This document shows positions 6,114 to 56,161 of a stretch of 64,000 nucleotides of DNA, in pieces. This stretch comes from Promethearchaeota archaeon. GTDB lineage: Archaea; Asgardarchaeota; Lokiarchaeia; Sigyniarchaeales; SOKP01. Position 1 is the first letter of the stretch; the number at the start of each line of letters is the position of its first letter. The notes below the pieces were generated by a model, which saw only the letters and a list, made by a program, of their open reading frames with translations, made no database searches and was not told where the DNA came from. Where the stretch lies: contig JAHPZJ010000020.1 in the NCBI GenBank assembly GCA_019058245.1, positions 9,986 to 73,985 of the forward strand, read 5' to 3'. The position numbers were made by a program, and so were the translations under genes.

Positions 6114-7586
6114 ATGTCAAATTTCAGAGAAAAAATTCACTCGAAAGAACTTATCGCAACATTTGATGACGTATTAGTGCTTCCGGGTTTCACTGACTTT
6201 TCTCCAAGTGAAGTAGATATTTCCTCCAGTTTAGGGCCATACCATCTAAATCTTCCTATCATGTCATCTGCTATGGATACAGTAACAGAAGAATTAATGG
6301 CAATTAACATGGCTTTACATGGAGGTTTAGGAGTCATACATCGCAATTGTTCTTATGAAAGACAATTAGAAATGGTTAGAATTGTGAAACGTGCTCGATC
6401 ATTTGTGATTGATGATGAACACGTAGCAACTATTAATCCTAGTGCTAGAGTTGCTAAGGCAAAATTTATGATGGAAAACTATAATATTAGTGGTATTGTG
6501 GTGGTAAATGAAGATAAAAAAGTATGTGGTATTATTACAAAGCGTGACATTCCCTTTTTTGAACAAGATATAAAAAATGGAGCAGTAAAAGACTATATGA
6601 CAAAAGACGTAATTTCTATCAAACCAGGTGCCTCAAGGGAAGAAGCATTGAAAATTTTATATGAATCACGCAAGGAAAAATTACCTATTATTGACAATGA
6701 TGGTTATCTAAAAGGCTTAATCACAAAAAAAGATCTTGCACCAGAATTTCCATTCGCAACTAAAGATGAAGAAGGTCATTTATTATGCGCATTAGCAATC
6801 TCTCCTAAATTTCCTGAATCATCACAAGCTCAGAATATATTAAAAGAGATTGAAAAATATGTTGATATTTTCTTTATTGATGTAGCTGATTTTTATAAGA
6901 AGGACGATATTGTGGGTACATCAAAACTTATGAAATTCTTAGAATCTAATTTTGTCTTAGGGAATATTGGAACGTATCAAGCAGCTGAATATATCATTTC
7001 CAAATGTGATTTTGTTGAAGAGCAATTTATTGGATTAAAGGTGGGAATGGGTTCTGGATCGATATGTACAACCTCGATTCAAACAGGAGTAGGATCTCCA
7101 ACTCTATTTGCAACGGCTCAAGTTGCTGATGCAATATCAGATCATAATCCAAAATTATCTTTGATTGCAGATGGAGGGTTTAGTAAACCAGGAGATTTAC
7201 CAAAATCGTTTGCCGCTGGTGCTGATTTAATAATGTCTGGGCATTTCTTTGCAGGTACTGATGAATCTCCAGGCTTTATTGATACTATAGCAGGAAGAAA
7301 AGTAAAAGTGTATCGAGGTATGGGCAGTAAAGAAGCAAGAACATTTGGTTATGTCTCAGATCGTTACACTGAAGGATCAAAAGTCTTAACTGAGGGTGTT
7401 TCTAATTATGTACCTTATGTAGGAGATGTAGCGGGAGTTTTGGCCACTTTAAAAGAAGGACTTTCGAATGGAATGATTTATGCAGGATCAAAAACTATTA
7501 AAGATATGAAACAAGCTCAATTGGGTATAGTTTCTATTGTTGGACAAAGAGAAACCCAACCTCATGATCTTATTGGAAAATTTTAA
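6114..7586 (+). CDS. guaB: IMP dehydrogenase with CBS pair
   Basis: N-terminal FDDVLVLPG, an internal CBS pair, the catalytic loop GMGSGSICTT and the C-terminal YRGMGS are all present. Confidence 0.9.
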   Translation: MSNFREKIHSKELIATFDDVLVLPGFTDFSPSEVDISSSLGPYHLNLPIMSSAMDTVTEELMAINMALHGGLGVIHRNCSYERQLEMVRIVKRARSFVIDDEHVATINPSARVAKAKFMMENYNISGIVVVNEDKKVCGIITKRDIPFFEQDIKNGAVKDYMTKDVISIKPGASREEALKILYESRKEKLPIIDNDGYLKGLITKKDLAPEFPFATKDEEGHLLCALAISPKFPESSQAQNILKEIEKYVDIFFIDVADFYKKDDIVGTSKLMKFLESNFVLGNIGTYQAAEYIISKCDFVEEQFIGLKVGMGSGSICTTSIQTGVGSPTLFATAQVADAISDHNPKLSLIADGGFSKPGDLPKSFAAGADLIMSGHFFAGTDESPGFIDTIAGRKVKVYRGMGSKEARTFGYVSDRYTEGSKVLTEGVSNYVPYVGDVAGVLATLKEGLSNGMIYAGSKTIKDMKQAQLGIVSIVGQRETQPHDLIGKF

Positions 7587-7765: not shown

Positions 7766-9370
7766 ATGAAAACGATAAAAAGAGCAATTATTAGCGTTTA
7801 TGATAAGAGTGGAATTATAGAATTCGCGAAAGTATTACAGAATGAATTTAGGATTGAAATATTATCAACTGGAGGTACCGGAAGCCTTTTAGAAAAGAAT
7901 GGAATTAAACATACTAAAATTTCTGAGTTTACTAATTCACCTGAAATGTTTGAGGGGAGAATTAAAACTTTACACCCTAAAATAGAAGGGGGAATATTAT
8001 TTCGAAGGGGTTTACAGAGTGATATTGATGATGCTGATAAATATAATATTAAACCAATTGATATGGTTGTGTGTAATTTATATCAATTCAAAGAAGCAAT
8101 TGAGAAACCAGGAATAGCTCTTGATGATGCTTTGGAACTAATAGATATTGGAGGACCAACGATGATTCGTTCGGCTGCAAAGAATTTTCCAGATGTTATA
8201 GTGATTCCAAGTCCAGAATATTATAATGAGATAATTGATGAACTTAGGAAAAATAAAGGTGCTATTACTGAAGGAACTCGAATAATTCTCGCACAAGATG
8301 TTTTCGCTATTATGGCTGACTATAATGCAGCTATTGCTAGTTATCTACAAAAAGTATATAATCCAAATGCTTTTTTCCCCCATACAATGATAAAAGTATA
8401 TGAAAAAGTACAAGATTGTAGATATGGTGAGAATTGGGATCAAAAAGCAGCTTATTACAAAGATACTCTTAGTACACATGGTCTTCACAATCTAAAACAA
8501 ATCAGTGGAAAAGAGATCTCTTTCAACAACTACTTAGACATTGATTCTTGTATGCAAATTCTCTTAGATTTTGGCACTGAAAATTACACAACGGCAATAT
8601 TAAAGCATACTAGTCCTAATGGTATAGCAATTGATAAAAATGACCAATTAATGTCAGTAAAAAAAGCATTTAGCACAGATCCTTTATCTGCTTTTGGAGG
8701 AATCTGGGGAATTAATAAAAAATTATCAAAGGAAGTTGCTGATTTCATAGTTAACAAAGAAAAAATATTTTTAGAAGTTATAATGGCTCCTTCTTTTGAG
8801 GATAAAGCCTTAGAAATATTAAAACAAAAAAAAAATATGATTATTATTGAATATGGAGATTTTCTTAGTAATAGAAACGATATATATAAAAATTTCGAAA
8901 TTAGAAGTGTATTAGGTGGAATTATTGCACAAGAATATGACAGTAAGCCTATTATTAAAGAATGGAATGTCGTAAGCAAGAAAAAGGTGACTGATATTGA
9001 AAAAGAAGCTTTAATTTTTGCTTATAAAGTTTCAAAATGGGCTAAGTCAAATTCAGCGTGCTTTGCTCAGATTCATGATGATGGCTTTTATACAATTGGA
9101 ATCGGTGCCGGACAACAAAGTCGAGTTCATGTAGTCAAATTGGCAATCCAGAAAGCCATTGAATTTGGTCATAAAGATAATTTGAAAAATTCTGTAATGG
9201 GGACAGATTCTTTCTTTCCATTTCCTGATGGCTTAGAGGTTGCTGTTGAAGCTGGAGCAACAGCAATTATAAATCCGGGGGGTTCCATTAGAGATGATGA
9301 AGTGATTGAGCGTGCAGACGAATTAAATTGTGCTTTGGTATTTTGTGGTAAAAGAGTCTTTCGTCACTAG
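7766..9370 (+). CDS. purH: Bifunctional AICAR formyltransferase / IMP cyclohydrolase
   Basis: The MGS-like N-terminus reads AIISVYDKSGIIEFAKVL...LSTGGTGSLL...GRIKTLHPKIEGGIL. The AICARFT C-terminus ends GGSIRDDEVI...FCGKRVFRH. Confidence 0.9.
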   Translation: MKTIKRAIISVYDKSGIIEFAKVLQNEFRIEILSTGGTGSLLEKNGIKHTKISEFTNSPEMFEGRIKTLHPKIEGGILFRRGLQSDIDDADKYNIKPIDMVVCNLYQFKEAIEKPGIALDDALELIDIGGPTMIRSAAKNFPDVIVIPSPEYYNEIIDELRKNKGAITEGTRIILAQDVFAIMADYNAAIASYLQKVYNPNAFFPHTMIKVYEKVQDCRYGENWDQKAAYYKDTLSTHGLHNLKQISGKEISFNNYLDIDSCMQILLDFGTENYTTAILKHTSPNGIAIDKNDQLMSVKKAFSTDPLSAFGGIWGINKKLSKEVADFIVNKEKIFLEVIMAPSFEDKALEILKQKKNMIIIEYGDFLSNRNDIYKNFEIRSVLGGIIAQEYDSKPIIKEWNVVSKKKVTDIEKEALIFAYKVSKWAKSNSACFAQIHDDGFYTIGIGAGQQSRVHVVKLAIQKAIEFGHKDNLKNSVMGTDSFFPFPDGLEVAVEAGATAIINPGGSIRDDEVIERADELNCALVFCGKRVFRH

Positions 9371-16565: not shown

Positions 16566-18089
16566 ATGGCACTACCCCTACCTGGAACCCCAATTATCAT
16601 TGATATTGGCTCAGCATATGTAAAAATTGGATTTTCTGGAGAACCAAGTCCTAGATATGTTTTTCCTTGCATCACTGGGACAGAAAAATATAAATCTATA
16701 ATGGTTGATGTGAGTGCTCGAAGCATCTACGTAGGTAATGACGTATCTCGAATGCGTGGTGTACTTAAAATAAACCATCCATTAAGTCGTGGTGAAATTA
16801 TGGACTGGGATAGTTATTATGAGATCTTAAATTATATTTTCTATTCATTGCTTAGAATTGATAACCTTTCCCAGTATCCTGTATTCTATTGTGAACCTCC
16901 TTTTATGCTTAAAGATACTAAAGAGTATATAGGGCGTGTATTTTTTGAAACTCATCGAGTTGGGAGTTTGGTGATGATGTCAACACCATTACTTTCTTTA
17001 TTTAGCGTTGGATTGACGACAGGATTAGTTATTGAAAGTGGAGAAGGAATGACTTGGATAGTCCCAATAATTAATGGGCAAATTGTTCAGCATGCGGTTC
17101 AGAAAATTCCAATTGCAGGAATTGATGTGAATCAAAACTTGAAAGGTCTCTTAATGAGAGAAGGAGTAAGTATTTCTTCTAGTGCTGCAGATGAAATAAT
17201 CCAAGAGATAAAAGAAAAAAACTGTTATTTTGCCTTGGATCCAAATATACCTCCCAAAGCGGGAGAAATGTTTAGTGTTCCTATGCCTGACGGAACAAAA
17301 ATAAATGTTCCTACTTATATTCTTTATCAAGCTCCAGAAGTTTTATTTAATCCAGGTATGTTAGGTTCTGGAAATATAATGAATATCCCTCAAGCTGTTA
17401 TAGCGAGTTTGCGTGTAATTGATAATAATTATTGGCATGAATTGCTTTCACATATAGTTTTTGCCGGAGGAAATCTATCTTACAGTGGTTTTCAAGAACG
17501 GTTCGAGTCTGAATTAGATCCTCTCTTACCTCAATTAGGTCCAATTCCTAAACCAGTAGCCCCGCTCTCTGCAGTTAAGAGTGAACTAATTAAACTTCAA
17601 AGTGTTGAAATCTCTAAAAAGAATGAAGACACATGTCCAAAATGTGGTGCATTTATTAATCTTGATGATGGGAAAAAAGTATGTCCCTCCTGTGGTGAAT
17701 TATTAATTTTACCAGAAATAAAAATAGGAACATTAAATACAAATGGACAAAAAAAAGTAGAAGAAGGTAAATGTCCATATTGCAAAAAAGAACTTCCTGA
17801 TATGGATTCGCTTTTTTGTCCATATTGTGGAAAACCAATTGAATCTCTAAAACAAACGATATTACCAGAAAAAGAAATAGAGAAAACAGCAGCACAAGAA
17901 TTTTCAGAATTTATGGAATCTGCTAATAAAGTACTAAAATTTTTTGTTCCTGACAATCTTCAGTATGCTGCTTTTAATGGTGCAGCAATACTAGGAAGTT
18001 TACCTTCATTCCAGCAACTTTTTATAACACATGACCAGTTTATAACGAATCCTAATCTTTTATATCGAGATATAAGTGAAATCCTTTAG
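16566..18089 (+). CDS. Actin-family protein (actin/Arp-like) with a ~130-aa insertion containing two CxxC...CxxC zinc ribbons
   Basis: It aligns by eye with eukaryotic actin over the whole fold: IIIDIGSAYVKIGFSGEPSPRYVFPCITG, YVGNDV..RG, TTGLVIESGEGMTWIVPIINGQ, IKEKNCYFALDP, FAGGNLSYSGFQERF and AAFNGAAILGSLPSFQQLFITHDQF. The insertion reads CPKCGAFINLDDGKKVCPSCG ... CPYCKKELPDMDSLFCPYCG. Confidence 0.85.
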   Translation: MALPLPGTPIIIDIGSAYVKIGFSGEPSPRYVFPCITGTEKYKSIMVDVSARSIYVGNDVSRMRGVLKINHPLSRGEIMDWDSYYEILNYIFYSLLRIDNLSQYPVFYCEPPFMLKDTKEYIGRVFFETHRVGSLVMMSTPLLSLFSVGLTTGLVIESGEGMTWIVPIINGQIVQHAVQKIPIAGIDVNQNLKGLLMREGVSISSSAADEIIQEIKEKNCYFALDPNIPPKAGEMFSVPMPDGTKINVPTYILYQAPEVLFNPGMLGSGNIMNIPQAVIASLRVIDNNYWHELLSHIVFAGGNLSYSGFQERFESELDPLLPQLGPIPKPVAPLSAVKSELIKLQSVEISKKNEDTCPKCGAFINLDDGKKVCPSCGELLILPEIKIGTLNTNGQKKVEEGKCPYCKKELPDMDSLFCPYCGKPIESLKQTILPEKEIEKTAAQEFSEFMESANKVLKFFVPDNLQYAAFNGAAILGSLPSFQQLFITHDQFITNPNLLYRDISEIL

Positions 18090-33432: not shown

Positions 33433-33840
33433 TTTCCTGTACTTTTCTAATTCTTATTAAATATATTTCTTACTTGTAATATTGATAAAGAAAAATAAGA
33501 AAATAATATAAAATTATCAATTTCGAACCGATAATATAGAAAATTTTTTTTTGAAAAAATTTCTTACAACAATGTTTTAACGTTATTGAAAGAGATCTTT
33601 CAAGATTTATTTAATTTTAATAATATTAGATTATTTAATATAGTTATATAAATTTAAAAAATTCCCAGATTAATAATCCAAAAGTTTATGGGATTTATTC
33701 GAAACGATATTAATAAATAGTAGAAAAATAACTTTAAATATTAGTTTCTTTTTGATTTTATAGAATAAGTATCAATAATTTAATCTTTTACAATAATTTA
33801 TTAAATAAATAAAAAAATCTAAAGTACTCTAGATGAGGAG

Positions 33841-34854
33841 ATAAAGTTTAATATTAAACTAGTTGTTTGTGGTGAAGGAAAAGTTGGGAAAACTTCAATA
33901 ATAGATGCTTTTTTAGGTAATGAAGTTCCTGAACAATACTTACCAACAATCGGTAATGTCACTAATAAAAAAGAATATTTATTAAAGGAGAATGGTAAAT
34001 CACTTAAAATTTTGATATCGATATGGGATTTAGGTGGTCAAAGATCTTTCAATCCATTTAATCCTTCAATATATACTAATACAGATATTGCTATTTTAGT
34101 TTTTGATTTAACTAGACCAGAAGAGACTTTAAAAAATTTAAAGAGAGAATTCTTAAAAAATTTAAATCAAAATTCTGAAGATTTCTTATTACTTTATGTT
34201 GGAAATAAAATAGATCTACTTGAAAAAGATAATTCTTTAAAAATGGCAATTCAAGAGTTCTTTACTCAAAATGATCATCTAATGCTAACATCCGCCAAAA
34301 CAGGAGAAAATGTTGCTGATTGTTTTGAATTGTTATTATCAACTTATTTAAGAAAAGAGGAAATTTTAAATCCAGATCTAATTCTTGATAATCCCTCTAG
34401 TGTGTTTCATAATCTCATTGGCAAGGATGAGGAGAAATTAAAAAATAAACTTATTAAAATAACTGAGATTGAGTCAGTCCTAGAAAAAATAAAACCGATA
34501 CCAAAAACAGTAAAAGAAGAGAAAGTTATTGAGGAAGAAGCGAAGGAAGATAAAGAAGTAAAATATTATGAATTTCTTAGAAAAGAATTAGATCAAAATG
34601 AATTACAAAGATTAGAAGTACTAGATCGTTTTTTAATAAGTTTATCAGAATTAGATGATACAATAAAACATATTAAAAAATCAAAAACCACATCCGTGAT
34701 TGGACTAATTGATGATTTAAAGAAAATTTTAATAAATGCTAAGAAAGAATTTAAAAAGAATGCTAATTTAATGATAAAATTAAATTCAGAAGAATTTGAA
34801 TTAATAAAGGTTATCTCCAAGTTTGATGAAGAACAATCTTTACTAAACCAATAA
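33841..34854 (+). CDS. Rab/Ras-like small GTPase with a ~170-aa coiled-coil C-terminal extension; the 5' end is uncertain (no canonical start upstream of the P-loop)
   Basis: My hand translation of the frame upstream of the track ORF (34012) gives IKFNIKLVVCGEGKVGKTSIIDAFLGNEVPEQYLPTIGNV. After that come WDLGGQ, GNKIDL and TSAKTGENV. An in-frame TAA lies at 33820-33822. Confidence 0.8.
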   Translation: MKFNIKLVVCGEGKVGKTSIIDAFLGNEVPEQYLPTIGNVTNKKEYLLKENGKSLKILISIWDLGGQRSFNPFNPSIYTNTDIAILVFDLTRPEETLKNLKREFLKNLNQNSEDFLLLYVGNKIDLLEKDNSLKMAIQEFFTQNDHLMLTSAKTGENVADCFELLLSTYLRKEEILNPDLILDNPSSVFHNLIGKDEEKLKNKLIKITEIESVLEKIKPIPKTVKEEKVIEEEAKEDKEVKYYEFLRKELDQNELQRLEVLDRFLISLSELDDTIKHIKKSKTTSVIGLIDDLKKILINAKKEFKKNANLMIKLNSEEFELIKVISKFDEEQSLLNQ

Positions 34855-43929: not shown

Positions 43930-45570
43930 TTATTTAAGTCTAGCATAAATTTCTCTATTATCATTTAATTTCGTTAATAACTTTTTTGCTTCCTTATTTG
44001 ATAGCGAAAGAGAAATATCACTATTACGGCTTAAAGACCCTGTAAAAATCAGATGATTATCTGCAAAAATTTCAATATTTTGGCTTGCATATTTCGGATT
44101 AGCTTTAATGATGATTTTTTGTTTTTTTACTTCAACATCCAAATGAATTTTTTTTTCCTTTTTCATTCCACTAGAAGGTACCACTTTTCCCCTTGAAGGG
44201 TATTTAGAACTGATAGGATTCACCACAACATCATTTCCAAAATTATAAATCTCGAATTCTAAACGATCACTTTCAAAATCTCTAACTTCTACAACAGGTC
44301 TAGCTAAATCCTTATCTCTAAAACCATGAGGTACCTTAACAGTCATTCTTAATATTAAAACACTCGAAATATCTCCACCTTGGATAAAAATTATCGTATC
44401 AATAATAGATGAGAGCATTCCAAGCTCGATTCGACCAATAAATCTTTGAATGGCATCAATAGCAGATGATGAATGCACCACACCAACCATTCCAACACCA
44501 GATAATCGAAAATCAGCATAAACTTCAAAATCTCTTGTTGTTCTTACTTCGTCAAAAATGGTAAAATCTGGTCTTACTAGTAAAAGTATATCCGCTGAAT
44601 TTTCGATATTACCCTCAAGTTTTGTATATTGAGTGATTTCGGGTCTAACTTGTAAGTCTCTCACACTTTCAAGTGTTTTAACCACTTTATCATGTTCTAA
44701 ATAGAAATTAGCTAATGCGGCAGAAAATGTTGATTTACCTGCACCTGGAGAACCAGATACTAATATTCCTTCAGCTTTTTCAATTCTTTTTCTGAGCCGA
44801 CTATCAATAGAATAATCATCTAAGGTTAAACTAACTAAAGGTCTAACAGCAGTAATTTCAACATCACTAGAGAAGGGAGGACGTGTTATAACGATTCGAA
44901 ATTCCCTCATTTGAGCAACAACAGCTCCTTCTTTTTCAATTTCAATAAAAGAATGTTTATCTTCTCTTGTAACTTCTACAATCTCCATTGCTATATCTTC
45001 AATCAATTCATTTGAGATTAAGTCTTCTTTAATTTTGTGTAATCTCCAATTTCCTGGAGATCCCTTTTTAGCATAAGGAGGATTATTTCGCTTGAGATGA
45101 ACACTCATAGTCTCATCATCAAAATATTCAAATAATTTTAGAGAAAGCATTTCTTCTTCTTTTACTGCTCTTTTTTCCCAAGCAAATAATACTTCTAAAC
45201 CCTCAAATACACCAACATCTCCTTGTATTCTGTCTGCTGTTATTAGAATCGCATTATTCTTACGAGCTTCCTCTCTAATCAATGCATCAAGTTCACCACC
45301 TTGAGCTAGCTTTATTTCTTCTCTCGTTGGGCGTCTTCCTACAATAAGTAATTCAACTTTTTTATCATCATGAAGTTTTCGCAATTCTTTTAATACATTT
45401 AGTCCAAAAAATCCAATTTCTTTTTGCACATTTGTTCGATATTCAACTTCAGCAATAACGATATTACATATGATAATTTCTGGTTTTTCTCCCAATTCTC
45501 CATCTTCGATTAAATTAAGGATTTGACCATTAAAAATAATCGATGTATCACATAAAAATTTGTCTTGCAT
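43930..45570 (-). CDS. PIN domain + PilT-like ATPase + KH-like domain protein (archaeal COG1855-type)
   Basis: It has an N-terminal PIN-like acidic pattern (CDTS...EVEY...TADR), Walker A GSPGAGKST and Walker B ILLVRPDFTIFDE. The C-terminus is basic and beta-rich. Confidence 0.8.
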   Translation of the reverse strand: MQDKFLCDTSIIFNGQILNLIEDGELGEKPEIIICNIVIAEVEYRTNVQKEIGFFGLNVLKELRKLHDDKKVELLIVGRRPTREEIKLAQGGELDALIREEARKNNAILITADRIQGDVGVFEGLEVLFAWEKRAVKEEEMLSLKLFEYFDDETMSVHLKRNNPPYAKKGSPGNWRLHKIKEDLISNELIEDIAMEIVEVTREDKHSFIEIEKEGAVVAQMREFRIVITRPPFSSDVEITAVRPLVSLTLDDYSIDSRLRKRIEKAEGILVSGSPGAGKSTFSAALANFYLEHDKVVKTLESVRDLQVRPEITQYTKLEGNIENSADILLLVRPDFTIFDEVRTTRDFEVYADFRLSGVGMVGVVHSSSAIDAIQRFIGRIELGMLSSIIDTIIFIQGGDISSVLILRMTVKVPHGFRDKDLARPVVEVRDFESDRLEFEIYNFGNDVVVNPISSKYPSRGKVVPSSGMKKEKKIHLDVEVKKQKIIIKANPKYASQNIEIFADNHLIFTGSLSRNSDISLSLSNKEAKKLLTKLNDNREIYARLK

Positions 45571-45832
45571 GATGTCGTTTATTACTTTTTGATATATATA
45601 ATAATTATTTGTATAAAGCTTCTATTTGTTAAGGATATATACAATAATGAAGCTTAATATTTATTATTGGAGTGTATCCAGATGTCTTTTCTTTTCTAAA
45701 TAAAATTTATAAGAAAAGTAATTTAAATTAAATGATAACCAGTTATATTTATCTGTTTATTAGATTACAAAAAATAAGAGCTTTAAATATTCTAAAATTG
45801 AAGATTACAATAATATTTTCGTGAATTTAAAT

Positions 45833-48304
45833 ATGAGTCAAGAAATGCTATTTGAAAAAGATGGACGCTCTTTGGAAGATTTATTTATCAAAGAAGATAA
45901 TTATACGTTCTTGGTAGGGGCAGGAGTGTCAATGAATGCTCCTTCTAGTTTACCATCTGCAGTCAAAATTGTTAATAATCTAATTTCCCTCTGTGCTCCA
46001 GAAGAAGAAGTGCAAGAATTGCAAAATCTTGATGATTTGCGCTATGAATGGTTAGTAGAAGCAATTCAAGAACATATTGATAAAGAGTTTAAGTTTTTAG
46101 ATTTTTTTGACTATAAAACTACACCTAATTTACTCCATATTTTTTTGGCTAAACAAATTAAAAAAGGAAATTATGTACTTACTACTAATTTTGATTACAT
46201 GATAGAATATGCACTCAAGAGAGTTATTCTTGAGAGTGATCACTCAAAAATCATTCCAATAATCACTAAAGAAGATTTTATCAAATATCCGGATCCTCAA
46301 TCGCTTATTGATGAAGGTAAGTATCCTCTATATAAAATTCATGGAGCAAAAAAGAATTTAATAACTAAAGAAGATACGGCAGATTCCTTGGTGACTACAC
46401 AGCGAGCTTTAGGAAAACATCGCGTTGAGGGTGAAACCTTTTCTGTAGAAACATTTAAAAAACCAGCAATTCATAGTCTACTAAAAAATCGAAGTTTAAC
46501 AGTAATGGGCTACTCTGGAAGCGATGATTTTGATATAGGACCAATCTTAAAAGAAATACCTGATCTTAAAAGGCTGATCTGGATCAACCATTCATTCACT
46601 GAAATTCCTACTATAATTAAAGTGAATAAAGTAAACGATCCCAAAGTATGGGAAAATGAACTTAAGGTTGATCAATTCCTTGCTGAAATCCGATCTGACG
46701 TGAATTTTGAAGTAATTAAAGTTCAAGGCAATACCCATGACTTAGTGGAGAAAATTCTATGGCCCTCATTTTTCCCTAATATTCCTATACCTTCACTTAG
46801 CACGTCTGGAGATGATATAAAATTTGAAGATTGGATAAAACCTCATTATTCTTATGTTGATCTTGCACAAAAATATTTATTTGCATGTTATGTTTTCAGT
46901 GAATCCCAAAAAAATGATTCATTACAACGTTGCGCTGAGAAGGCTTTAACTATTGAGTCAATCAAGTCAAATGAAACTCATAGTGCATATTTACTATCAA
47001 TGATAGCTCTTGCTCATGTTTCAAAATTTAATTATCAAAAAGCTGCAGAATATTACCTGCAAGCCTTAGAAAAATTTAAACAAACAAATAATTATGAAGA
47101 AACTGCAAGGATTTTGATAAGTTTAGCCATGATATCTGATGCCATGGGTCGAGATGACCTTACTCAACAATATGCTGACCAAGTTTTGCCAATTGCTCAA
47201 AGAGAATCCATGCATGTTGGCTTAACTAATTTATATACCACATTAGCAAATAAATACAATAAACAAAGAGATTTTGATAAGGCAATTATGTACTTAGAAA
47301 AATCAAATAAAGAAGCCCAAGAAGCTGGAATCATTATGATAAGAGCAAGAAATTTACAAGGAATGGGATCAATGTACATGAATAAAGGTGAAATTGACAA
47401 AGCTATTTTAAAACTTGAAGAATCACTACGAATTTTTAAAGAATTTAAGAGTGCGATTCCTGATGCTTATATTAATCTCGCATTGATTTATGACCAGCAC
47501 AAAAATGATCCAGCAAAAGCAATTGAATATCTTAAGGAAATTATAAAGATTGCTCATTCATTTAAGGGTCGCACTTTACTGTCTTTAGTACCCTCACTAT
47601 ATACCATTTCTCGTCTCTATTTAAGATTGAATGATAAAGAAAATGCATTTAATTATAGTCTACAAGGAATAAAAACATATAAAAATCCCATTATTCAATA
47701 TAAGGTACAAGAGTTTATCACTAATAACCCTCAACTATTACAAGAAAATACAATGGTCTACATGGAATTAAATAAAATTGCTGCAGAGATATATCTAAAT
47801 GAGAAAAAGGACCATGCAAGTGCTATAAATTGCTTCAGGAATATTATAGAAGCTGCCGAGAAATTTGGTGGCGATGCTCTCGTAACTGTGCCTCCTACTT
47901 GGCTAAATATAGTTCGTATTTATCTACAATCGAATGATCAAGATAATGCTCTCGAACAATGTATACTAGCATTAAGATTTATGGATAGACCTGATGTAGT
48001 TCAAAAAATACAACACATCTCAAAGACAAACATGCAATACAAGATGCAACATGTTCAAACCATAGGGGAATTGTTTGCAATAGCTGCAGAGCTTTATGGG
48101 GTAAAGGGTAATAAGGAAATGGCTTCACAATATCAACAATTATACCAACAAGTTCAGATGAGTATGACACCTATGGGAGGATCACCAATGGACCAGATGT
48201 TTACCCAGGCAATGATGAATGCAAGTGGTACAGATGTATTTAAAAATCTCACAGGAGATAAGAAGAAAAAGAAAGAGAAAAAAAAGAAAAAAAAGAAGAA
48301 ATAA
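45833..48304 (+). CDS. SIR2_2-type (defence-sirtuin-like) domain fused to TPR repeats, with a Q/M-rich segment and polylysine C-terminus
   Basis: The N-terminus has FLVGAGVSMNAPSSLPS, LTTNFDYMIEYAL, LYKIHGA and VMGYSGSDDFDIG. About 400 aa of TPR-like repeats follow (AEYYLQALEKFK, AIMYLEKSNKEAQ, AILKLEESLRIFK, AIEYLKEIIKIA). The tail reads DKKKKKEKKKKKKKK. Confidence 0.75.
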   Translation: MSQEMLFEKDGRSLEDLFIKEDNYTFLVGAGVSMNAPSSLPSAVKIVNNLISLCAPEEEVQELQNLDDLRYEWLVEAIQEHIDKEFKFLDFFDYKTTPNLLHIFLAKQIKKGNYVLTTNFDYMIEYALKRVILESDHSKIIPIITKEDFIKYPDPQSLIDEGKYPLYKIHGAKKNLITKEDTADSLVTTQRALGKHRVEGETFSVETFKKPAIHSLLKNRSLTVMGYSGSDDFDIGPILKEIPDLKRLIWINHSFTEIPTIIKVNKVNDPKVWENELKVDQFLAEIRSDVNFEVIKVQGNTHDLVEKILWPSFFPNIPIPSLSTSGDDIKFEDWIKPHYSYVDLAQKYLFACYVFSESQKNDSLQRCAEKALTIESIKSNETHSAYLLSMIALAHVSKFNYQKAAEYYLQALEKFKQTNNYEETARILISLAMISDAMGRDDLTQQYADQVLPIAQRESMHVGLTNLYTTLANKYNKQRDFDKAIMYLEKSNKEAQEAGIIMIRARNLQGMGSMYMNKGEIDKAILKLEESLRIFKEFKSAIPDAYINLALIYDQHKNDPAKAIEYLKEIIKIAHSFKGRTLLSLVPSLYTISRLYLRLNDKENAFNYSLQGIKTYKNPIIQYKVQEFITNNPQLLQENTMVYMELNKIAAEIYLNEKKDHASAINCFRNIIEAAEKFGGDALVTVPPTWLNIVRIYLQSNDQDNALEQCILALRFMDRPDVVQKIQHISKTNMQYKMQHVQTIGELFAIAAELYGVKGNKEMASQYQQLYQQVQMSMTPMGGSPMDQMFTQAMMNASGTDVFKNLTGDKKKKKEKKKKKKKK

Positions 48305-54787: not shown

Positions 54788-55420
54788 ATGAGGATCAAAC
54801 CAACAGTCAAAATAGACCCAGATGATGTAGTACGGTATTTATTGTATCAACAGTTCTATTATGGGGATGATCGTATTTATGGACGTACTAAAGATCGATC
54901 TGAGCATATTAAGGGGGCTGGCAAAGCAATAGAAAATTTTTATTCGTTAATTACTGAAATGATAAATTTAATCGATAAGGGAAAAATTCGCCAATATCTG
55001 GAATTTTTTAATGAAAATATTCATAACGTCCCTATTGATGCCATTTTGAATAAATATAGAGAGTATAAAGATGCAATGGGGTCGGAACTTGACCATAAAA
55101 TTACTTTAAATGTGATTATTGGTGATTGTTTAAGTGAAATTCAAACAAAAAGTTTTAACGCTACTATTACGAGTTTAATCGAATTCATTATGGAAAAGAA
55201 ATCCCTAAAGCCCGAAAAAAAATTAGAAGTAAAAAAAAAGATTGAATCATTGTATGGAAAAAGCGATCCTAATATTGGAATGATTTATAGCTTAAGTTTT
55301 ATGGAATTCATAAGTAAAAAGATTCATGATAAATATATCAAAGAAAAATGTGAAAAATTATTAAAAAAATATTCTAAGCAAGTTCTAAAGGCAATAGAAA
55401 AAATTAAGTTTTTAGATTAA
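54788..55420 (+). CDS. Hypothetical helical protein (210 aa)
   Basis: The call rests on the ORF alone. No motif was recognised. Confidence 0.45.
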   Translation: MRIKPTVKIDPDDVVRYLLYQQFYYGDDRIYGRTKDRSEHIKGAGKAIENFYSLITEMINLIDKGKIRQYLEFFNENIHNVPIDAILNKYREYKDAMGSELDHKITLNVIIGDCLSEIQTKSFNATITSLIEFIMEKKSLKPEKKLEVKKKIESLYGKSDPNIGMIYSLSFMEFISKKIHDKYIKEKCEKLLKKYSKQVLKAIEKIKFLD

Positions 55421-55480
55421 TATTTATCAACCAATTTTAATGACTAAACTAATATTTAAGCAAAAAAAAATATTAAAAAA

Positions 55481-55513
55481 AAAGAGAAAAGAGAAGCCGG
55501 CTTTTTTCTCTTT
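55481..55513. terminator. Weak hairpin plus T-rich tract between convergent genes
   Basis: GAGAAG-CCGG-CTTTTTTCTC can form a ~7-bp stem (with G-U pairs), followed by a T run at 55502-55507. Confidence 0.3.
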
Positions 55514-55551
55514 AAACCCCGTGATAAATACGTTTCTCATTAATATTTTAC

Positions 55552-55806
55552 TTAAAATCCACCTGCTTGTGTGGCCATTACTGTGATCACATCTTTTTTT
55601 GGATGGATTCCTATCTTTGCAAACTTTAATTGATCAGGCAATACTTTACCTTTAAAAATGAATTGTATTGCGAGGATTGGATTTAATTTATATTCACGTT
55701 GTACAGTTTTTTTGATCTCTGCGATTGAATTATTAGGATCAAGCTCAATAAGTTTAATTGCTTGATCTGGAGGGACTCCGGTCAGTCTAAATCTATATTG
55801 GGTAAT
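55552..55806 (-). CDS. Ubiquitin-like beta-grasp protein ending in GG-F (not in the ORF track); the start codon is non-canonical or frameshifted
   Basis: My hand translation of the minus strand gives (I/M)TQYRFRLTGVPPDQAIKLIELDPNNSIAEIKKTVQREYKLNPILAIQFIFKGKVLPDQLKFAKIGIHPKKDVITVMATQAGGF-stop. IFKGKVL...GG parallels ubiquitin LIFAGKQL...LRGG. An in-frame TAA lies at 55812-55810, and there is no ATG/GTG/TTG before residue ~57. Confidence 0.65.
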   Translation of the reverse strand: MTQYRFRLTGVPPDQAIKLIELDPNNSIAEIKKTVQREYKLNPILAIQFIFKGKVLPDQLKFAKIGIHPKKDVITVMATQAGGF

Positions 55807-55963
55807 TTTTTATCACACACTTTTTATTATTTATTCAATTAAATTGGTTAGATATAAATTATCAAGATGCAATATTAAGGATTTTTGTTCAACATCCCGA
55901 ACTTTAGTTTAAATATTGAGTAATTCTCTCTTTTTCAACTCTAAACAATTTTTTGAAGTTTTT

Positions 55964-56161
55964 TTAGAATCGAAATGGCTCTGGAGGGGGACCTGGTCTA
56001 TCAGGTGGGCCTGGAGGGTGAATTGGTCCGGGTTTAGGTAATGGTGGAGAAGGAAACCTCCCTATTTTGTGTTCTAAACCTAAAATTCGTTGTTCTATTT
56101 TATCCAACCTTTCTTCAATAACCCTTAACCTCTTTAATATGTTGGGGTCTTCTATTGTCAT
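55964..56161 (-). CDS. Small protein: N-terminal coiled coil plus proline-rich C-terminus
   Basis: The sequence is MTIEDPNILKRLRVIEERLDKIEQRILGLEHKIGRFPSPPLPKPGPIHPPGPPDRPGPPPEPFRF. The coding segment is locally GC-rich within an AT-rich genome. Confidence 0.5.
   Translation of the reverse strand: MTIEDPNILKRLRVIEERLDKIEQRILGLEHKIGRFPSPPLPKPGPIHPPGPPDRPGPPPEPFRF

Follow-up and report, generated by a model that had tools for sequence, protein, structure and literature searches.

How does a cell translate a ubiquitin-like protein from a gene that offers no canonical start codon? The question is raised by a small gene on the minus strand of a 64,000-nucleotide (nt) stretch of Promethearchaeota archaeon DNA (assembly GCA_019058245.1, contig JAHPZJ010000020.1, positions 9,986 to 73,985), which at its full length we call the window. 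The window is Lokiarchaeial, has a GC content of about 28% and also encodes an actin homolog and Ras/Rab-type GTPases. The best explanation, and one that we consider probable, is that the gene encodes a conjugatable, stand-alone Lokiarchaeal ubiquitin whose translation starts at AUU with the assistance of a Shine-Dalgarno (SD) sequence. Its parts, as read from a translation of the window and from comparison with orthologs, are the following:

55552-55806, minus strand: coding sequence of the ubiquitin-like protein, 84 codons and a TAA (55806 to 55552), reading (M)TQYRFRLTGVPPDQAIKLIELDPNNSIAEIKKTVQREYKLNPILAIQFIFKGKVLPDQLKFAKIGIHPKKDVITVMATQAGGF with the initiator Met at ATT
55804-55806, minus strand: ATT, the proposed initiation codon (AUU), aligned with the ATG of orthologs that begin MTQYRF
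55806-55811, minus strand: run of six A (A6), comprising the spacer bases 55811-55807 and the first base of ATT (55806)
55812-55820, minus strand: SD-like element GTGTGTGAT (GGGTGTGAT in orthologs), conserved in an alignment of 28 upstream regions
55555-55563, minus strand: GGT GGA TTT, the diglycine and an extra Phe, from a comparison of the tails of 80 orthologs

Around the start, the minus strand has the sequence ...AAAAAGTGTGTGATAAAAAATTACCCAATATAGATTT..., which in the ubiquitin frame is divided into GTG TGA TAA AAA ATT ACC CAA TAT AGA TTT. Two in-frame stops precede the ATT at 55806-55804, TGA at 55815-55813 and TAA at 55812-55810, and a single AAA codon (55809-55807) separates the latter from it. 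Downstream, the frame is open through GGT GGA TTT (55563-55555) and closed by TAA at 55554-55552. The first in-frame ATG, GTG or TTG is the TTG in ...KGKVL..., at about residue 56, and for this reason a mechanical list of open reading frames (ORFs) lacks the gene. The original prediction, made from the letters of the window, had correctly described the bounding TAA, the lack of a canonical start up to this point and the blank in the ORF list. It had offered two ways of starting the protein: at the ATT, or at a GTG at 55820-55818, which lies one base out of the ubiquitin frame and would be brought into it if the A6 run were in truth seven bases long (A7).

Is such a gene real, and is it functional? 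Positions 55400-56000 of the window recur with 0 mismatches and 0 gaps in Logan contigs from four independent runs of two studies, at a depth of 12-19 and from sediment and soil samples. The A6 run at 55806-55811 is identical in all four of these independent assemblies and is genuine; a homopolymer error is thereby rejected, and the A7 variant of the start falls with it. Orthologs were collected as 80 loci from a scan of one genome per species, plus 1 by protein look-up; the counts of start codons given below take in 82 sequences, and those of tails and cores take in 80 orthologs. At least 81 other genomes carry the gene at this syntenic locus, where its neighbours are kept as well: NadA, a 370-aa winged-helix (wHTH) protein, a 65-aa proline-rich protein (p65), HycI and a tRNA-splicing endonuclease. 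In 19 of 80 orthologs the 82-residue core is identical. Over all orthologs, the mean proportion of synonymous differences (pS) is 0.76 and that of nonsynonymous differences (pN) is 0.038, and the ratio of the corresponding rates (dN/dS) is 0.01-0.05. The 41 ATT-type genes have a mean pS of 0.70, which is near saturation, a mean pN of 0.031 and a dN/dS of about 0.01-0.04, with a median of 0.012 that equals the median of the ATG-type genes. The gene is kept by very strong purifying selection, ATT lineages included.

Metatranscriptome contigs of relatives cover the ubiquitin gene, too. One contig of a close relative, from an RNA-Seq cDNA library, spans 55574-55828 with the ATT and the spacer kept, and differs from the window only at 55819, where GTGTGTGA is replaced by the consensus GGGTGTGA. 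We also sought the window's own organism in the RNA runs; no run holds it, and only relatives were found. Together, these observations bear on the least favourable view of the locus, namely that it is a dead gene or an artefact, be it a pseudogene with a lost ATG or the product of a homopolymer assembly error. The lack of a canonical start and the homopolymer beside the start would fit this view. Given that four independent assemblies agree, that 43 species-level lineages with ATT have intact frames and synonymous sites near saturation, that the ratio of mean pN to mean pS is about 0.04, and that an ATT-type relative occurs in a metatranscriptome, we regard its probability as negligible; the pseudogene reading is rejected on dN/dS.

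At which codon, then, does the protein begin? In what we call the start column, which is the codon that lines up with the Met opening the shared N-terminus MTQYRF, we find the following codons:

ATT: 43 of 82 sequences
ATG: 29 of 82 sequences
ACG: 5 of 82 sequences
ATA: 2 of 82 sequences
TTG: 2 of 82 sequences
GTG: 1 of 82 sequences

Apart from ATG itself, every codon found here in the 82 sequences is one base away from ATG. The upstream in-frame stop of the ATT and ACG genes is usually just 1-2 codons away, and between it and the start column ATG, GTG and TTG are absent from 38 of the 43 ATT genes and from 4 of the 5 ACG genes. Over half of the orthologous genomes, and the window with them, have no in-frame ATG, GTG or TTG start for the gene. 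The third base of the start column is also distinctive: among the 43 ATT/ATA lineages scored, ATT occurs in 41, ATA in 2 and ATC in 0, compared with 56% ATT, 27% ATA and 17% ATC at ten invariant internal Ile columns of the same lineages (binomial p=7e-9, the lineages being related, not independent). The 'Thr' codons of the start column are ACG in 5/5 cases, ACG being the rarest Thr codon in the window ORFs (7%), and the 'Leu' codons are TTG in 2/2 cases, with TTG making up 11% of the Leu codons in the window ORFs. On a neighbour-joining tree of two syntenic neighbours with 51 taxa, the start state changed at least 9 times. The neighbour genes at the same loci have ATG at their start column in 73/73, 29/29, 45/47, 43/47, 34/38 and 24/29 cases (83-100%), and the near-cognate start effect is gene-specific within these loci.

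The second distinctive feature of the start region is the SD-like element, the core of which, GTGAT at 55816-55812, ends 5 nt before ATT. The in-frame TGA (55815-55813) falls inside the element, which ends on the T that opens the in-frame TAA at 55812-55810; spacer variants in the orthologs are TTAAAA, TAAAAA, TTAACA and TATAAA. With the archaeal 16S 3' end taken as GGAUCACCUCCU, which is general archaeal knowledge and not this genome's own 16S, the mean duplex energies are:

ATT lineages: -9.96 kcal/mol
ACG lineages: -8.5 kcal/mol
ATA lineages: -8.4 kcal/mol
ATG lineages: -3.80 kcal/mol, at background level
Random window 22-mers: -3.5 kcal/mol
Other window ORFs: -3.4 kcal/mol

The difference between ATT and ATG lineages is significant if lineages are treated as independent (Mann-Whitney p=1.6e-11), and in 5-6 sister contrasts the stronger SD is found in the ATT member. 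The geometry of the SD matches that of the SD-led aEF1A leader of P. abyssi, GGAGGUGAUUUAAAUG, which has been used in studies of initiation (PMC6237735). Both the start column of the orthologs and the SD comparison favour the ATT at 55806-55804, the first of the two starts originally offered; the string GTGTGA, read as a start, instead belongs to the conserved SD-like element.

The same alignment of leaders allows two further ways of starting the protein to be judged. In one, an out-of-frame GTG (55820 or 55816) would serve as start and the frame would be restored by recoding at A6, through a -1/+1 slip of the ribosome or of RNA polymerase. GTG 55820 with a -1 slip on AAA AAA would yield MCDKKITQYRF, and GTG 55816 with a +1 slip would yield MIKITQYRF, which is the N-terminus of protein P0003 in locus L001. 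Many ATT orthologs that still lack a canonical start, however, have an interrupted A run (GATTAACAATT, GATATAAAATT; TTAACA, TATAAA), and slippage therefore cannot be the conserved mechanism. Moreover, GTG 55820 is G-G-G in most relatives and thus not conserved, the GTG within GTGAT belongs to the SD-like element at its fixed distance from ATT, neither a conserved ORF upstream nor a stimulatory structure or slow codon is to be seen, and six A are short for transcriptional slippage. Recoding is accordingly most improbable, and the GTG/A7 model and other slippage models were rejected on the broken A run and the lack of conservation of the upstream GTG in relatives. Somewhat less improbable, yet still very unlikely, is a start-stop arrangement in which ribosomes start at the GTG at 55818-55816, stop at once at TGA and reinitiate at ATT in spite of its not being a good start codon. 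The window and most GGGTGTGAT orthologs indeed contain an in-frame GTG-TGA 2 codons upstream of ATT. This GTG is missing, however, from the AAGTGAT ATT orthologs L023, L025, L049, L054, L055 and L069, and L014, L061 and L079 deviate as well; the element fits an SD better, and even in this arrangement the final start would still be AUU.

For SD-assisted initiation at AUU, we can outline how expression may proceed. Transcription from a promoter about 50 nt upstream would produce a short leader of some 22-27 nt, in which the SD-like GUGAU (GGGUGUGAU in most relatives) would position the small ribosomal subunit, and the initiator Met-tRNA would read the near-cognate AUU 5 nt downstream of GUGAU, with the strong SD offsetting the weak start codon. 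The pairing of AUU and SD would probably keep output low or tie it to start-codon stringency (aIF1), although such a regulatory role is speculative. The product would be an 83-residue β-grasp modifier ending in Gly-Gly and one extra C-terminal Phe. Bacteria provide a precedent in infC, the gene for IF3, which is translated from AUU. Both genes have a conserved near-cognate AUU start and an SD, and in both a weak start would make use dependent on the fidelity of initiation; infC differs in belonging to another domain of life, the factor set in archaea being aIF1, aIF1A and aIF2, and an autoregulatory logic is not apparent for the ubiquitin gene. A more far-reaching version, which we put forward tentatively and regard as rather doubtful, is that Lokiarchaeia deliberately translate their most conserved ubiquitin from AUU or ACG, gaining the SD when ATG is lost and letting it decay when ATG returns, for the purpose of gene-specific control via aIF1. 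If true, this would constitute an archaeal counterpart of both the bacterial infC AUU control and the eIF1/eIF5-dependent near-cognate initiation of eukaryotes.

Several points weigh against SD-assisted initiation at AUU. In archaea, the accepted start codons are in general AUG, GUG and UUG, the only ones given in reviews of initiation, and aIF1 discriminates against others (PMC7531240, PMC6237735); Lokiarchaeal genomes moreover show no prevalence of SD sequences (PMC7531240), and by duplex energy, SD enrichment was not found at the window ORFs either. In the window itself, the SD is degenerate (AGTGTGTGAT, -5.1 kcal/mol), one ATG member of the ACG clade has an equally strong SD, and the duplex energies rest on an assumed archaeal anti-SD, not that of this genome. 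In the statistics, lineages that are related count as independent. The RNA contigs belong to relatives and may include carried-over DNA, and initiation at AUU, while most likely, is read from these contigs and the comparison of orthologs. In Haloferax, ribosome profiling noted near-cognate candidate sites, which were then set aside (PMC7261190).

A second gene of the window presents a similar picture. A Rab-family GTPase at 33826-34854 (plus strand) has no canonical start; from 33826 on, its frame is open and takes in the P-loop, and its first ATG, GTG or TTG comes at 34012, codon 63. The GenBank annotation of its orthologs P0250 and P0252 begins at ATT codons, and the ATT at 33851-33853 of the window, with a GAGGAGAT motif upstream at an uncertain spacing, aligns with the start of P0250. 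AUU initiation may therefore be wider in this lineage.

What kind of protein is made? The Pfam scan matched the ubiquitin family, PF00240, with 36.7 bits (E=3.5e-9, profile positions 11-71 of 72), above the curated cut-off of 25.4 bits. At E<=10 it returned only ubiquitin, Rad60-SLD and a spurious PRS2_N, and none of the ThiS, MoaD, SAMP or Urm1 profiles was reported at that threshold. Sequence matches among solved structures are polyubiquitin and the ubiquitin-like (UBL) domains of Mdy2/Get5, Rad23 and ubiquilin. An AlphaFold2 model built with 48 homologs has β-grasp topology (strands E2-8, E17-22, E45-51 and E73-80, helices H13-16 and H28-38) with a predicted local distance difference test (pLDDT) of 92.5 and a predicted template modelling score (pTM) of 0.81. 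Foldseek found 412 matches to it in the PDB at E<=0.001; the best 50 of these 412 are almost all ubiquitin, SUMO, NEDD8 or ISG15 entries, and the best matches to ubiquitin, SUMO and Caldiarchaeum ubiquitin have template modelling (TM) scores of 0.75-0.83 (up to 0.83 normalised on the target). The gene belongs to the ubiquitin family, and its likeness to ubiquitin is not due to chance. Thus, profile search and structure prediction bear out the 84-residue ubiquitin-like β-grasp ORF on the minus strand that had been proposed.

Compared with eukaryotic ubiquitin, NEDD8 and SUMO, the protein shares the β-grasp fold (TM 0.76-0.83 to 1ubq), a PF00240 match above cut-off and extreme conservation inside its clade. 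It is, however, only about 20% identical to ubiquitin, its tail reads MATQAGG instead of LRLRGG, its gene is single and stand-alone, with no polyubiquitin or ribosomal-protein fusion, and in most lineages this Lokiarchaeial gene apparently starts at AUU or ACG. ThiS, MoaD, SAMP and Urm1 are likewise small β-grasp proteins with a GG end, and SAMPs are conjugated in archaea, but their profiles are not matched and no ThiF-type E1 is found among 50 scanned window ORFs; membership in these families was rejected on the Pfam scan. We found 187 homologs at 73-98% identity, and those with a named source are all from Lokiarchaeota/Promethearchaeota metagenome bins. The family is narrow: a library of 1.84 billion representatives contains no more than 131 proteins that match at E<=0.001. 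Close relatives of the domain (P0121, P0128, P0133, P0134 and P0139) are 53-68% identical; P0121, of 191 aa, is a tandem pair, and the others are embedded in proteins of 450-880 aa.

Is the protein attached to others through its C-terminus? GG is invariant in every ortholog without a 30-nt insert described below, which agrees with the predicted tail of GG and one residue, GG-F in the window. After GG, 19 of the 80 orthologs have nothing, 56 have one residue and 5 have a longer tail, and the single residue varies freely among I, F, V, A, S, Y, L, N, R, C and K. A GG followed by no or one variable residue is the pattern typical of a precursor trimmed to expose GG. It recalls the precursors of UBB, UBC and UBI4, in which GG is followed by a removable residue. 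In the proposed scheme, a protease of the JAMM/Rpn11 type or another kind would remove the residue after GG, and E1-like, E2-like and E3 enzymes, the genes of which would lie elsewhere in the genome, would conjugate the protein to targets. Closest to this among archaeal modifiers is the ubiquitin of Caldiarchaeum subterraneum (PDB 6fnn; PMC5654768, PMC6043591), the precursor of which is cut back to GG by an Rpn11 homolog (PMC6043591) and which is a close structural match (6fnn_C, TM 0.75); it lies, however, in an operon with E1, E2, RING and Rpn11, neighbours that the window gene lacks. The ubiquitin of the Asgard Ub-ESCRT system comes from the same phylum and belongs to the same Pfam family, and Lokiarchaeota are reported to have such a ubiquitin gene region (PMC9192718). 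The window locus differs from it in its order NadA, wHTH, p65, ubiquitin-like gene, HycI and tRNA endonuclease.

The scan of window ORFs against Pfam covered 50 of a set of 52 (6114-7586 and 7766-9370 were left out) and revealed no E1 (ThiF), E2 (UQ_con), RING or JAMM domain, as the original prediction had stated for an activator and a processing protease. Within 10 kb of the ortholog in Lokiarchaeum ossiferum, there is no E1, E2, E3 or protease gene. The lack of such genes from both the 50 scanned ORFs and these 10 kb counts against a conjugated modifier, and conjugation is therefore only an inference. The chief alternative is an adaptor in the manner of the UBL domains of Get5/Mdy2 or Rad23, which would bind partners without being attached through its C-terminus. 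It draws on the Mdy2/Get5 UBL being among the best single-sequence matches in the PDB (E ~7e-5), on the relatives of the domain that are fused inside large proteins, and on the same shortage of E1 and E2 genes nearby. An adaptor, though, would leave unaccounted for a GG that is invariant in insert-free orthologs and followed by 0-1 freely varying residues, a tail typical of a processed, conjugated modifier, and genes of the ubiquitin system are reported elsewhere in Lokiarchaeota genomes (PMC9192718). We thus consider the adaptor unlikely, while taking it more seriously than the rivals concerning the start.

Some orthologs contain the insert just mentioned, 30 nt long, in frame and located between codons I74 and T75. 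It is found in L063 (10003-10290), L081 (1432-1720) and L085-L091 and not in the window. As protein, the insert is hypervariable (IFENFLLLSE, REFGNPQFCV, RHWSNPLMCE and others) in an otherwise invariant sequence, and an in-frame TAG lies within it in L063 and L081. In every case it forms a 9-bp hairpin, with compensatory changes at 7/9 pairs and 90% of cells paired, and the observed covariation score was reached by 0/500 shuffles. Its presence in two sequence clades suggests precise gain or loss, and it may represent a structured element that is mobile or resembles an intron; inspection of the hairpin by eye revealed no canonical bulge-helix-bulge motif. Insert-free forms occur in both DNA and RNA runs.

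How new is the gene? It had been called unannotated, which holds for mechanical ORF lists and not for GenBank, where ATT-type orthologs are listed as 84-aa proteins. UCC21358.1 on CP070831.1 and UCD02598.1 on CP070805.1 are such proteins beginning with M, MTQYRF...GGV and MTQYRF...GGI being entered as 'ubiquitin-like protein' or 'hypothetical protein', and the DNA of these records (our loci L012 and L037) has ATT at the start and no canonical start. Annotation has therefore already read the gene from ATT, and the gene is known and annotated in relatives. In a literature search, we did not find an ATT start on an Asgard ubiquitin, or its compensation by an SD, described; what appears to be new is that the most conserved Lokiarchaeal ubiquitin has, recurrently, a conserved near-cognate start matched by a compensating SD. 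Asgard ubiquitin systems bear on models of how eukaryotic protein modification arose, and here a ubiquitin paralog is as conserved inside Lokiarchaeia as ubiquitin is inside eukaryotes. Gene finding that relies on ORFs overlooks it in over half of the species examined; surveys that depend on ORF calls therefore under-count it, and genome annotation in Lokiarchaeia should permit SD-supported ATT, ACG and ATA starts. If initiation at AUU or ACG is confirmed, it would be a clear, evolutionarily recurrent case of archaeal near-cognate initiation with visible SD compensation.

The gene is flanked by further conserved elements on its strand:

55853-55863, minus strand: TATA-box-like GATAATTTATA, a putative promoter element
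55874-55913, minus strand: non-coding block TTTAAACTAAAGTTCGGGATGTTGAACAAAAATCCTTAAT of 40 nt upstream of the putative TATA box, conserved in 28 loci
55530-55514, minus strand: 3' element TATTTATCACGGGGTTT, conserved downstream of the stop
55510-55484, minus strand: hairpin GAGAAAAAAGCCGGCTTCTCTTTTCTC of the conserved 3' region
55483-55475, minus strand: T run of the conserved 3' region

In 28 orthologs, a block GATAATT(A/T)ATA is conserved at a distance of about 50 nt before the start. The metatranscriptome contig of the close relative stops at 55828, some 26 nt downstream of the TATA-like block, an end that would fit a leader of about 22 nt. In the block at 55874-55913, which may be a binding site for a regulator, the AAAC, AAGTT and AAAATCCTTA columns are near-invariant in the 28 orthologs; an Rfam search of the leader and its flanks, this block included, gave one sub-threshold chance match only. 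The 3' region at 55475-55530 is conserved in most orthologs of the larger clade, of ATT and ATG types alike, and is probably a 3' untranslated region with a putative terminator. A consensus terminator scan made no call there, scans for sigma-70 promoters and intrinsic terminators being uninformative for an archaeon. The TTTATCAC of the 3' element is complementary to the leader's GTGATAAA, which comprises SD and spacer; we saw no covariation between the two, and the 3' element also occurs in some ATG lineages.

Just upstream of the gene, on the same strand, 55964-56161 encodes p65, a coiled-coil, proline-rich protein of 65 aa for which the Pfam scan gave no match. Its synteny with the ubiquitin gene extends over 48 loci, and two of its orthologs have ATT at its start column. 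The actin homolog of the window (16566-18089, plus strand; Pfam Actin, 218 bits) has double zinc-ribbon domains fused at its C-terminus. Finally, a PIN-domain/ATPase protein (43930-45570, minus strand) adjoins a SIR2-like/TPR protein of 827 aa (45821-48304, plus strand), and this pair, at 43930-48304, looks like a defence or signalling module.

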